Source: a bacterium
GTDB taxonomy: Bacteria; T1Sed10-126
Assembly: GCA_003554945.1 (NCBI GenBank)
Contig: PWHN01000099.1
Location: 9,289-73,288, forward strand
DNA length: 64,000 bases
Direction: 5' to 3'
Positions within the stretch are counted from its first letter, which is position 1. The number at the start of each line of letters is the position of its first letter. Of the stretch, positions 5,134 through 7,580 are shown piece after piece. Under the pieces are notes generated by a model. It ran no database searches, was not told the DNA's origin, and saw nothing but the letters and a program-made list of their open reading frames with translations. A program made the position numbers and the translations under genes.

Positions 5134-5478
5134 TTGATGATTCCGGCTCGGAGGCCGGAATGACGTCAAGTTCAAGATGGATTCCGGATCGCGCTCCCTT
5201 CGGTTGCTTGTCCGGAATGACGTCAAGTTCAAGAGCATGAGCGAGATTATGAGCACTTAATGAATTTGAATTAGCTTTCAGCTTTTGGCTTTGAGCTTTA
5301 AGCTGGTGTTTTCCGGCTCGGAGGCCGGAATGACGCGCAATTCATTTCACCCCCCTTTGTTTTTCCTCCCTTCAAGGGGGGAAAAGGAATGGGGGGATGG
5401 TTTTCGGGTCGCTTGTCCGGGGTGACGAAACACGGGATATTTTTTCAGGGCCACACTAAACAGGTATTCTGAAAGAAA
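5134..5478. repeat. Composite intergenic repeat, copy A (REP-like hairpins, TCAAG hexamer run, conserved ~90-nt core, 3' leader)
   Basis: Contains ttccggctcggaggccggaatgacg at 5140-5164 and 5311-5335; the long-hairpin variant ttccggatcgcgctccc..ccggaatgacg; the core tcaagttcaagagcatgagcgagattatgagcacttaatgaatttgaattagctttcagcttttggctttgagctttaagctggtg; and a 3' part acacgggatattttttcagg. It is about 90% identical to 7345-7580. Confidence 0.6.
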
Positions 5479-5488
5479 ATGGTGAAAT

Positions 5489-5878
5489 ATGAACTTATAT
5501 TATCTACTGGTGCTCATTGTTATTGCGGTGCTTGTTTTTGGCAGATATATATTAGCGGGGGCGAAATTTACCGCTGAAGATTTAGAGCAGTCAGACAACG
5601 ATTTATTGCCGCCTGAGGAGGACAGGGCAGAAAAAGTTCAAACAACGGGGAAAGAGTGGCCGATAATTGCCGAAAGTCCGCTGGACTATGAAATCCAGAC
5701 AATGAAAGCGCGGCTTGAGGCCGAAGAAATTCCGGTAGTTGTTGAAATTCAGAATCCAAACGTCACAAAAGGAGCGGCGAACCTGTTGAAGCACCGGCTG
5801 AGGGTTAAACCGGACCGCGTTCGGGAGGCTCTAAAACTGCTGCGGGAAGAAGGGTTAGACGATTATTTGAAGGAGTAA
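5489..5878 (+). CDS. Small protein with an N-terminal transmembrane helix, function unknown
   Basis: 129-aa ORF immediately after composite repeat copy A. Hydrophobic N-terminus LYYLLVLIVIAVLVFG. Confidence 0.45.
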   Translation: MNLYYLLVLIVIAVLVFGRYILAGAKFTAEDLEQSDNDLLPPEEDRAEKVQTTGKEWPIIAESPLDYEIQTMKARLEAEEIPVVVEIQNPNVTKGAANLLKHRLRVKPDRVREALKLLREEGLDDYLKE

Positions 5879-5964
5879 GTGGGAAAGTGTGAAAGTGTGA
5901 AAGTGGGAAAGTGTGAAAGTGTGAAAGTGGGAAAGTGTGAAAGTGTGAAAGTGGGAAAGTGTAG
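5879..5964. repeat. 24-bp tandem repeat (gggaaagtgtgaaagtgtgaaagt) x3 plus a partial copy
   Basis: Direct tandem copies at 5881-5904, 5905-5928 and 5929-5952, with a partial copy to 5964. No spacers, so it is not CRISPR-like. Confidence 0.8.
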
Positions 5965-6004
5965 TTGCGAAGAGGGCGATGGGGCGGTGAGGCGCAAGTT
6001 CGAG

Positions 6005-6125
6005 GGAATCAAGGTCAAAGTCACTGGATTCCGGCTCGGAGGCCGGAATGACGAGCGGGCAATCAAGGTCAAGATCAAAATCAAGTTCAAGAACATGAAC
6101 AAGATTATCAGCACTTAATGAATTG
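6005..6125. repeat. Partial copy of the composite intergenic repeat
   Basis: aatcaaggtcaaagtcactgga, hairpin ttccggctcggaggccggaatgacg (6029-6053), and caaggtcaagatcaaaatcaagttcaagaacatgaacaagattatcagcacttaatgaattg. Confidence 0.5.
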
Positions 6126-6322
6126 AGTCTTCTCCAAAAAGCCCTCTCCCTCGAAGGGGAGAGGAATTAAGCCAAAAACGGCTTGTAGTTTGCGATGACA
6201 GAATCATTGAGGTCTGGGCTGCCGAACTCTTTGCTGATATTACTGACAATTAATGTTAAAATTTTTTTGGTAAGTAATGACGATTAAAAACAGCAGAGGA
6301 ATCTCGAGTTAAGGAAGCGATT

Positions 6323-7201
6323 ATGGAAGCTATAAGTAAAGTTTGGACGGCCTGTTACAGGGTAGCCCGTCTTTTTAAGCTGGACCGGGTTATGTTGTTT
6401 TTTTTCTTTATGACCGGCAGTTACCTGGCCTTTTCTCCCGACGATGTAAATGGCGCGGTAGTTTTATATTTCTTGCCGCTTTCCTTTTTGCTGCACCTGC
6501 TATACATGCTCTATCTGGCGCGGACTAAGAATCCCGTCCCTTCAAGATCCAACGTAGCGGCGCGTAAAATATTTTCTTACATCACACCTGTGCTCGGAGA
6601 ACAGCCCTGGCTGGAACTGATACTGACACTGCTTTTTCTGGCAGTAATTTATTTTACCGGTTTCTACCCCTACTGGTCGCTGTTGTTAGCTTTTTTGTTT
6701 GTGCTCGGAGCTGCTTACCTCCAGTGCCGGAGGTTACTGGGTCCTGTTTTTTTGGGACTGACCTACGCCTTAACTGTGCCCGCCGGAGCTTTGCCGGCCG
6801 GCGGTGAGCTTTTTTCCGGAGAGCTTTTTTTACTTGCCGGGGTGCCCTTTTTCTGGGGGATAGCGTCAGACCTTTTCCGGCAGGCCATCGTTTCCTACCA
6901 CGGTGAAATATCGTCTCAAAATCTACTGGTAGAGATACTGGGTGACGGGGTTATACTCTGGCTGGTACGTATTCTATACGTTGTTGTTTTTCTATGCTGG
7001 CTGGCCTTCGCCCGGTTACAAAATATGACGGATGTTTATCTTGGAGCGGTTGTCCTGCTCGCAATATTTGTCTTTCTCCGACATTTTTATACGGATTACA
7101 GCAGTGTACGTTCAATGAGTTTGCAGCGTCGCCGGATAGGACCGCTGTTTGGTATTGGTTTTTTAATAATAAATTTTTTCCGGGCTATTTATGGTATTTA
7201 G
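6323..7201 (+). CDS. Polytopic integral membrane protein, function unknown
   Basis: 292-aa ORF with several long hydrophobic segments (LFFFFMTGSYLAF, LILTLLFLAVIYFTGFY, LLLAFLFVLGAAY, VVFLCWLAF, etc.). No catalytic motif recognised. Confidence 0.55.
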   Translation: MEAISKVWTACYRVARLFKLDRVMLFFFFMTGSYLAFSPDDVNGAVVLYFLPLSFLLHLLYMLYLARTKNPVPSRSNVAARKIFSYITPVLGEQPWLELILTLLFLAVIYFTGFYPYWSLLLAFLFVLGAAYLQCRRLLGPVFLGLTYALTVPAGALPAGGELFSGELFLLAGVPFFWGIASDLFRQAIVSYHGEISSQNLLVEILGDGVILWLVRILYVVVFLCWLAFARLQNMTDVYLGAVVLLAIFVFLRHFYTDYSSVRSMSLQRRRIGPLFGIGFLIINFFRAIYGI

Positions 7202-7344
7202 TCTTATTTTATGGGTTTGAATTCAAGATTGTCATTGCGGGCCCCGACCCGCAATCCATTTTCAGTTTTTAGTTATTGGCTTCAACCAGTAACTTGCACC
7301 CCGAAACCCGCAACTAATTTTTATGGTTTTGCACGAAAACCGCT

Positions 7345-7580
7345 TAAAATTCAAGATGGTTTCCGGATCGCGCTCCCTACGGTCGCTTGCCCGGAATGAC
7401 GTCAAAATCAAGTTCAAGAGCAAGAGCGAGGTTTTGAAAACTTAATGAATTTGAATTAGCTTTCAGCTTTTGGCTTTGAGCTTTAAGCTGGTGTATTCCG
7501 GGTCGCTTGTTTAGGATAACGGGACACGGGATATTTTGTCAGGATCACGCTAAAAAGTATTAATCGTCTGAAAGGCGGTA
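7345..7580. repeat. Composite intergenic repeat, copy B, immediately upstream of the OFOR alpha gene
   Basis: ttcaagatggtttccggatcgcgctccctacggtcgcttgcccggaatgacgtcaaaatcaagttcaagagc...cttaatgaatttgaattagctttcagcttttggctttgagctttaagctggtgtattccgggtcgcttg...acacgggatattttgtcagg. Near-identical in order and sequence to 5185-5478. Confidence 0.6.

Follow-up and report, generated by a model that had tools for sequence, protein, structure and literature searches.

The 64,000-nt stretch of bacterial DNA analyzed here (the window; contig PWHN01000099.1 of assembly GCA_003554945.1, GTDB lineage T1Sed10-126) carries a composite repeat of about 240 bp directly upstream of two unrelated genes, one encoding a small DUF2007-like protein and the other the alpha subunit of a 2-oxoacid:ferredoxin oxidoreductase. 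The two copies, A and C, are probably paralogous stretches of intergenic mosaic arrays that are built from CGTC-tagged repetitive extragenic palindromes (REPs) and remodelled by recombination, with a module at their gene-proximal end (L) serving as a control element. Within the arrays, only L is a candidate for a regulatory element shared by both genes. The arrays follow the known architecture of CGTC-tagged REPs and of neisserial intergenic mosaic elements (NIMEs) and introduce no new principle.

Extent and Composition of the Paralogous Copies

Copy A (5171-5316) matches copy C (7350-7501) by blastn over 152 bp at 89.5% identity with a single 6-bp gap (E = 1e-46), and a second block (5402-5463 against 7496-7557) matches over 62 bp at 79% identity. 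Global alignment of 5168-5467 with 7347-7562 gives 190 identical bases at 208 aligned positions (91%). The figure of about 90% over about 240 bp in the initial annotation of this DNA was essentially right, yet the match is interrupted: copy A holds a surplus of 84-88 bp at 5309-5399, consisting of one hairpin and a poly-C/poly-G hairpin that are absent from copy C, and copy C has a surplus of 6 bp. The copies do adjoin start codons, as had been stated, with similarity ending at 5467 and 7562, which is 21-22 nt 5′ of the ATGs at 5489 and 7585.

Copy A runs from a G-rich module through hairpin H1, hexamers, hairpin H2, the K-M-N spacer, a second H1, the x-P block, a decayed hairpin (H2deg) and L to 21 nt and the ATG. 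Copy C opens with hairpin H3 on the opposite strand and continues with module S, hexamers, H2, K-M-N, a decayed hairpin and L to 22 nt and the ATG. Thus, the 240-bp similarity is the substring of H2, K-M-N, decayed hairpin and L that is common to two different arrays. Copy A is closer to a copy in a sister species (97.6% identity) than to copy C (89.5%). The proposed partial copies were recovered by self-comparison with blastn at 6005-6124 (copy B) and 19008-19115 (copy D), and the predicted run of (A/G)TCAAG hexamers appears in Tandem Repeats Finder (TRF) with period 6 at 6062-6105. Repeats make up 63-68% of the three spacers that hold A, B, and C, and their share of the window's total spacer DNA is 27%.

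Short-read metagenome contigs frequently break within these repeats, which might point to chimeric or collapsed sequence. However, independent assemblies carry the same sequence: a soda-lake sediment contig from the Joint Genome Institute (L001, 14.8 kb) covers all three intergenic regions at 99.99% identity, a contig from the European Nucleotide Archive (L036) independently covers copy A, and a Logan contig (L002) begins within copy C. With this agreement of three independent assemblies across the region, and with the same families at syntenic positions in the sister species, an assembly artefact is barely conceivable.

A CGTC-Tagged Hairpin Family

The description of the building block as a REP-like CGTCATT hairpin was correct and can be made precise, as these hairpins have the anatomy of the published CGTC-tagged REP superfamily. 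On the tagged strand, they read 5′-CGTC or TGTC, a stem arm beginning with ATT, a loop, a stem arm ending with AAT, and CCA. H1 (25-27 nt) is 100% identical at 5139, 5311, 6027, and 19029, and the string CGTCATTSC occurs 11 times in the window versus ~1 expected by chance. In 291 kb from this organism and the sister species, a search for stems with AATGAC at their end, which left the first tag base free, required the ATT/AAT stem ends and placed no constraint on the position of CCA, returned 59 hairpins. Of these, 48 have the tag CGTC and 11 have TGTC (GACG and GACA on the other strand), and the CCA tail, seen as a 5′ TGG flank on the other strand, is present in 50/59. Stems are 9 bp long in 36 hairpins and 10 bp in 15, opening with the pairs A-T, T-A, and T-A. 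Loops mostly measure 2-4 nt with the closing T-G pair counted and 4-6 nt without it; ~15/59 are long (6-38 nt). Several stem variants keep their pairing by double changes (ATTCCGGCT, ATTGCGGGT, ATTGCGGAT, ATTCCCGC, ATTGTCCGGT, ATTACCCGGT, and others). Compensatory changes are many at two stem positions: 11 sequences have CG and 9 have GC at column pair 9/24, and column pair 13/20 is CG, AU, GC, or GU.

A covariance model (R1) built from 21 of these hairpins gives 11 matches in the window at E<0.01, all in spacers and strongly strand-specific, and 62 matches in related loci of this species and the sister species. R1 has no match in unrelated loci, in loci of relatives with a ~60% identical oxidoreductase, or in ~50 kb from relatives with Rho 88% or 79% identical. 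Since R1 matches occur only in this and the sister species and not in wider relatives, the hairpin family is a recent, lineage-restricted expansion. The four hairpins of array A (5136, 5180, 5305, ~5400) all lie on the plus strand. As for the related hairpins listed in the initial annotation, the model recovers those at 7228-7260 (-), 13342-13372 (-), 18958-18989 (-), 58037-58070 (-), and 58086-58130 (+), and weakly that at 32985-33016 (-; E = 0.003); the site at 16178 has the CGTCATT flank, but on a different, poly-C hairpin. A full-text search of the literature with the hairpin strings returned only unrelated primer sequences.

Two further kinds of sequence accompany the hairpins. A separate family of long poly-C/poly-G hairpins (CACCCCCCTTTGT..CCCTTCAAGGGGGGAAA) lies at 5344-5400, 11603-11690, 11911-11951, 16050-16235, and 47477-47531. 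A string of ~18 nt (ACTTGGGACGTTATTGGTT / CTTGGGACGTTATTCGTT) is found inside the loops of several REP hairpins (13465-13483, 16258-16277, and in the related loci L003 and L010), which suggests the nested insertion of a very small element.

Mosaic Architecture and Turnover in a Sister Species

Related loci were retrieved by a 20-mer of the M core in genome and metagenome scans, and conservation of this 20-mer among them is by construction; the sampled DNA amounts to ~0.3 Mb of these genomes. The lineage is known only from metagenomes, and the window's own contigs come from soda-lake sediment. The sister species is represented by the metagenome-assembled genome GCA_964566495.1, in which coding DNA is ~74-92% identical to the window and Rho is 96% identical. 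The closest Rho proteins named to phylum or below are ~65-67% identical and come from several phyla.

The modules between the hairpins belong to families that include TCAAG hexamers, the M core, AGCTTT heptamers, poly-C hairpins, and 8-mer arrays. K-M-N measures 86-92 bp, S 88 bp, and x-P 64 bp, with hexamer spacers of 10-21 bp. GC content forms a wave, at 0.60-0.68 in hairpins and 0.28-0.40 in modules around a window mean of 0.48. K-M-N gives 36 blastn matches in the window and related loci, representing ~30 distinct copies because a few matches are halves of split copies, and these are 92-100% identical to the consensus.

In both sister species, arrays stand at corresponding intergenic positions, yet which modules they contain and in how many copies varies from one species to the other. 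Upstream of the sister oxidoreductase gene, H3, S, H2, and K-M-N are missing and x-P stands in their place, followed by H2deg, L, and leader, which are kept; in copy A of the window, this same x-P block stands ahead of L. At the UbiA-like gene, which sits between repeats A and C, the distal upstream modules differ between species and the proximal 190 bp are conserved. Upstream of an ABC ATPase gene, the H1-K-M-N unit is single in one species and doubled in tandem in the other, with L conserved in both. Between two flagellin genes, the sister species has ~300 bp of additional modules, and a strain-level contig has the same proximal array before the DUF2007 gene and differs only in the distal modules. 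Since copies A and C are not nearest relatives, the modules behave as genome-wide families kept unusually similar across species, a similarity that could result from selection, conversion, or recent spread.

Taken as a mechanism, a lineage-specific expansion of CGTC-tagged REPs would build the arrays, with GC-rich hairpins punctuating AT-richer modules. The arrays would then be reshuffled by unequal exchange or gene conversion between identical hairpins and modules, or by a hairpin-specific recombinase. The tandem gain of a unit between identical hairpins at the ABC ATPase locus is an instance of the change this predicts. The arrays are probably not mobile as a single unit, and transposition of one 240-bp unit would be unlikely.

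The initial annotation had offered the insertion of a MITE (miniature inverted-repeat transposable element) into leader regions as one explanation. According to this explanation, a single non-autonomous transposon of ~240 bp inserted before both genes and brought a promoter with it, as two ~90% identical copies before unrelated genes might suggest; contig ends that fall within the repeat in several assemblies point to a high copy number, and mobile DNA is active in the lineage, as a further small element, described below, inserts site-specifically at the M/N junction of related loci. However, the repeat has neither terminal inverted repeats nor target-site duplications, and no common boundaries, as the limits of similarity differ among A, B, C, D, and ~30 further copies. 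The modules assort independently, occurring also separately and in other orders. In addition, the sister oxidoreductase site keeps L without K-M-N, and the copy-number change at the ABC ATPase locus involves a clean tandem unit lying between identical hairpins, an outcome expected from unequal exchange. The transposon explanation is therefore improbable and largely refuted.

It is also conceivable, though unlikely, that the hairpins resemble REPINs (REP doublets forming hairpins) mobilized by a Y1 transposase of the REP-associated tyrosine transposase (RAYT) type, so that arrays grow by hairpin-directed insertion and not by recombination. Conserved unpaired flanks of the kind seen in substrates of IS200/IS605-type enzymes are consistent with this, as are the presence of the same flanks on hairpins with different stems and the complete identity of H1 at four window sites in surroundings that are 80-93% identical. 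In contrast, the published survey links no transposase to CGTC REPs (Di Nocera, De Gregorio and Rocco, 2013; PMC3733652), and the array hairpins lie mostly head to tail, not in inverted pairs. Weak evidence against such an enzyme also comes from the ~0.3 Mb searched, where two hairpin-flanked open reading frames (ORFs) in related loci encode a xylose-isomerase-like protein and a response regulator.

The small element at the M/N junction is non-coding, measures ~215 bp, and was found at the same point of the M/N modules in four or five related loci: L018 (5180-5395, -), L019 (12745-12965, -), L030 (5338-5545, +), L007 (from 2808, +), and L013, where it ends at the contig end. It is bounded by a left hairpin GATAATTCACGA..TCGTGAATTATC and a right end GGCCTATGCATAAGGTTCATGCATAGGCC. 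In L018, L019, and L030, GAATTAGC and TTTCAGC flank the element, which has TTAGC at either side; the right flank in L007 differs. The window lacks this element, which has the look of a site-specific MITE targeting the repeat and is possibly IS200/IS605-like.

The L Module and the Regulatory Question

L (GGATATTTTGTCAGG..CACGCTAAA, ~40 nt) is always preceded by a decayed hairpin. A pattern search of the window gives 2 matches versus 0.01 expected. The module is present at four independent sites, before the genes for the DUF2007 protein, the oxidoreductase, the ABC ATPase, and a PAS histidine kinase. At each it is directed toward the following start codon, at a distance of 21-22 nt in the window copies and ~25-85 nt elsewhere. 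Before the oxidoreductase gene, 40/41 bases of the L core are identical between species versus ~83% in adjacent coding DNA. L has the pattern GGATATTTTGTCAGGNNCACGCTAAA..TAnnnT and appears to be a DNA-level control element of the downstream gene, most likely a promoter of the sigma-70 type, in which TTGTCA would be the -35-like hexamer and TAnnnT, ~17 nt on, the -10-like one, possibly with an operator within CACGCTAAAC. The hexamers observed are TTGTCA or TTTTCA, then, after 16-17 nt, TATTAA, TATTCT, TACATT, or TAAATT, a weakly sigma-70-like arrangement. An alternative reading of L would place a TAnnTTTG-like -7 element in GATATTTTGT.

The suggestion that the repeat supplies a shared promoter or leader is supported only for the last 40-70 nt (H2deg and L), the one part that is conserved at the sister oxidoreductase locus, which always face start codons. 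It is not supported for the remaining ~150 bp (H2, hexamers, M, and N), which are absent at the sister oxidoreductase site and occur in either orientation elsewhere. The M core is co-oriented with the downstream gene in 22 matches and convergent in 13. Since M occurs in both orientations and copy D is antisense, M is not a gene-directed signal, and the part of the 240-bp repeat outside L would have no gene-specific role. For both genes, only the last 40-70 nt are candidate regulatory sequence.

A shared cis-regulatory RNA would be another way to co-regulate both genes, with the whole repeat serving as a structured leader, for example as a riboswitch, attenuator, or leader peptide. The position directly 5′ of the start codons is as expected for a leader, the hairpins would fold in RNA (z = -4.9 for copy A), and a mini-ORF-like string, pointed out in the initial annotation, is present in the core. 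However, the fold of copy C does not exceed expectation (z = -2.0), K-M-N is marginal (z = -2.2), and the RNA of L and leader has no significant or consistent fold (z = -0.9, -1.4, +0.9). The string is not conserved as an ORF either: the ATG is missing in copy C and several others, and among the many altered copies there are one in-frame stop and one frameshift. The whole window has no Rfam match at the gathering threshold, and 4950-7650 has chance-level matches only at E<=1. Both the mixed orientation of the core module and its absence from the orthologous oxidoreductase leader also speak against a structured leader, which is very improbable. A separate candidate, a conserved regulatory element of the oxidoreductase family, was rejected, as relatives with a ~60% identical enzyme have unrelated upstream sequence.

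Several observations weigh against the account of REP arrays remodelled by recombination and ending in L. No transposase or recombinase was found in the ~0.3 Mb examined, and the remodelling is a mechanism that we infer. The array hairpins lie mostly head to tail, whereas CGTC REPs have been published as mostly head-to-head dimers (PMC3733652). The high share of paired cells in the hairpin alignment, 96.8% versus 22-53% with the partner slid, speaks for the family but is partly circular since the set was picked for having stems. With respect to L, we infer the promoter role from conservation, orientation, and a weak consensus match, at only four independent sites. A sigma-70 scan of the window gave no call at L, which fell below threshold, the implied 5′ untranslated regions are only ~12-15 nt long, and the conserved CACGCTAAAC falls in the would-be promoter spacer, which is unusual for a plain promoter.

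A more far-reaching possibility, to be held as tentative and rather doubtful, is that H2deg-L is a portable promoter/operator cassette placed by REP-array recombination before the DUF2007, oxidoreductase, ABC ATPase, and PAS histidine kinase genes. The arrays would then be a recombination scaffold that rewires transcription, and a landing pad for the ~215-bp element at TTAGC in the M/N junction. If so, four unrelated genes would share one regulatory input, and the lineage could expose the machinery that moves CGTC-tagged REPs.

Comparison With Known Intergenic Repeat Systems

REPs have been sorted into GTAG-tagged and CGTC-tagged superfamilies, and the CGTC type carries an unpaired CGTC (or TGTC/CCTC) at one end of the palindrome, a stem of 8-9 bp with complementary A/T at the first two positions, a 4-5-nt loop, and mostly a CCA tail (PMC3733652). 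These REPs are extragenic, exist in many copies per genome, mostly form head-to-head dimers, and are reported to have no associated transposase; the superfamily includes the Neisseria element dRS3 (family CGTC-1) and RPE-4/RPE-6 of Rickettsia (PMC3733652). The hairpins described here agree in tag, A-T-opening stem, short loop, CCA tail, extragenic multi-copy occurrence, presence of several stem variants, and the lack of a linked transposase in what was seen. They differ in their new stem types (ATTCCGGCT, ATTGCGGGT, ATTGCGGAT, ATTCCCGC, and others), in loops of 3-4 nt, slightly shorter than the published 4-5 nt, alongside long-loop variants, in their mostly head-to-tail arrangement in arrays, and in their soda-lake sediment host.

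The CGTC elements of Neisseria are located in large intergenic mosaics, where they are mixed with repeats of other families (PMC3733652). NIMEs consist of dRS3 inverted repeats (ATTCCCNNNNNNNNGGGAAT), 20 bp long and of the type ATTCCC-N8-GGGAAT, that flank >100 families of 50-150-bp repeat sequence (RS) modules and produce a regular GC wave (Bentley et al., 2007; PMC1797815). NIME arrays are syntenic between genomes and variable in repeat number and length, recombination has been proposed for their remodelling, and they had not been seen outside Neisseria at that time (PMC1797815). Similarly, the present arrays have ATTCCC..GGGAAT-type hairpins separating 20-150-bp modules of many families, GC peaks at hairpins and troughs at modules, a syntenic yet content-variable layout, and other small elements inserted into them. 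Exact dRS3-type arms (ATTCCCGC..GCGGGAAT) occur at 13345-13367, and most copies have ATTCCGG or ATTGCGG arms. In contrast to NIMEs, with which the arrays appear to have no module sequence in common, the host is not Neisseria, an association with surface antigens or DNA uptake is not evident, and some arrays end in the conserved L. The arrays work like NIMEs by architecture and are not filed as NIME members.

A looser likeness exists to the bacterial interspersed mosaic elements (BIMEs) of E. coli, whose GTAG-tagged REPs switch orientation from one to the next and are associated with RAYT transposases (PMC3733652). Both are mosaics of palindromic units and a few spacer motifs in spacers between co-directional genes, but the present hairpins have a CGTC tag and mostly direct orientation in place of GTAG and alternation. 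Other small intergenic repeats differ as well, as neither inverted-repeat ends with a TA duplication nor a fixed module order is seen here. The former pair of features defines the Correia elements of Neisseria, and the latter the modular (A-Bn-C) BOX elements of pneumococcus; both kinds are frequent upstream of genes, where they can provide promoters or alter their activity.

CGTC-tagged REPs are widespread, and these arrays are a second and independent case of a layout described as a peculiarity of Neisseria, in an uncultured, deeply branching soda-lake bacterium. Two sister species with array turnover at orthologous sites offer a system in which to ask how such arrays form and whether they rewire their neighbors. 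On a practical level, the repeats fragment metagenome assemblies of the lineage and yield spurious small ORFs such as 5879-6118.

Features of the Arrays and Neighboring Genes

TABLE 1. Positions of array components, other REP hairpins, and the two downstream genes in the window.
Feature	Position	Strand	Basis or remark
G-rich GRGCGA-type module, distal end of array A	5035-5110	+	TRF period 7/14 at 5033-5061
CGTC-tagged REP hairpin H1, GATTCCGGCTCGGAGGCCGGAATGACG	5139-5165	+	R1 41 bits, E=1e-10
REP hairpin H2, H1-type arms and flanks, long 20-nt loop	5178-5222	+	R1 25.8 bits, E=9e-6; paralogue 7357-7401
K-M-N spacer: TCAAG hexamers, core ..ATTATGAGCACTTAATGAATTTGAATTAGC, AGCTTT heptamers; GC 0.38	5223-5308	+	blastn; TRF period 7 at 5273-5304
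REP hairpin H1, second in array A, within the 84-88 bp missing from copy C	5309-5335	+	R1 33.4 bits
x + P: relic REP arm and poly-C/poly-G long hairpin	5336-5399	+	Family copies 11603, 11911, 16178, 47477
Decayed REP (H2deg), immediately 5′ of L	5400-5427	+	Aligned with 7494-7523, L011, L032, L037
L module (candidate control element), upstream of DUF2007 gene	5428-5467	+	-35-like TTTTCA 5442-5447, 17-nt spacer, -10-like TATTCT 5465-5470
Small DUF2007-like protein, downstream gene 1	5489-5878	+	Pfam PF09413, E=1.4e-5, 25.6 bits (just below Pfam 25.7-bit cut-off)
8-mer tandem array opening array B, 24-bp super-period	5877-5962	+	TRF score 172
REP hairpin H1, array B	6027-6053	+	R1 49.9 bits
Hexamer run and truncated core M (partial copy B)	6061-6124	+	blastn, TRF
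P-like hairpin CCCTCTCCCTCGAAGGGGAGAGG	6138-6168	undefined	Terminator-like on minus strand
REP hairpin H3 (TGTC-ATTGCGGGC..GCCCGCAAT-CCA), opening array C	7231-7258	-	R1 49.4 bits
S/T spacers: CAGTTTT-type repeats, ..CCGCAAC.., ..CCGCTTAAAATTCAAGATGG	7259-7346	+	Related strings L003, L005, L006, L032, window 36780-36860
REP hairpin H2, array C	7357-7401	+	R1 weak, 11.4 bits, owing to long loop
K-M-N spacer, copy C; GC 0.36	7402-7493	+	blastn, GC profile
Decayed REP (H2deg), 5′ of L	7494-7523	+	Alignment
L module (candidate control element), upstream of oxidoreductase alpha	7524-7562	+	-35-like TTGTCA 7536-7541, 16-nt spacer, TATTAA 7558-7563
2-oxoacid:ferredoxin oxidoreductase alpha subunit, downstream gene 2	7585-9405	+	Pfam POR_N, POR, PFOR_II
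Two REPs: ATTCCCGC..GCGGGAAT (minus, dRS3-like) and long-loop ATTGCCCGG type (plus), hexamer run between	13342-13492	both	
Array D: H3 (18958-18989, minus), H1 (19025-19057), K-M, truncated N	18958-19115	+	blastn, covariance model
Tail-to-tail REP pair	58037-58070 and 58086-58130	- and +	Covariance model

Strings similar to the G-rich module of array A lie left of the core module in related loci L026, L030, and L035. The sister species also has the x-P block upstream of its oxidoreductase gene, and the P-like hairpin at 6138-6168 is conserved with the proximal upstream region of the sister-species UbiA-like gene (L037). Array D lies between two minus-strand genes, antisense to them, and has no L module. 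The oxidoreductase beta subunit (9392-10426) follows alpha, and the oxidoreductase is <=62% identical to anything else.

The 8-mer array of array B (AAGTGGGA/AAGTGTGA) comprises 3.6 copies at 100%; it begins at the DUF2007 stop codon and makes a spurious 79-aa ORF. Its reverse complement lies at 36905-36950, upstream of a flagellin gene and beside a sigma-28-like TCGATAA, and a longer version exists there in the sister species. At 34402-40290, four paralogous flagellin-like genes (~300 aa, 63-83% DNA identity) stand in a row, preceded by FliW (33093-33590).

Other Repeats and DnaA Boxes

Within the 759-bp spacer between the NAD kinase and NikR genes, three perfect DnaA boxes (TTATCCACA, minus strand) lie in 85 bp (61722-61806); the window has four such boxes versus 0.4 expected. 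The group may be a DnaA-binding cluster. A replication origin at this site was considered and rejected, as GC skew changes sign near 48 kb and not there. A 134-bp palindrome at 61551-61684, which has no Rfam family, has perfect 15-bp termini (GTTCTGAGGACCGAT..ATCGGTCCTCAGAAC) and a 96% identical copy on a different contig of this organism (L020, 14278-14387), and it looks like another MITE-like repeat.

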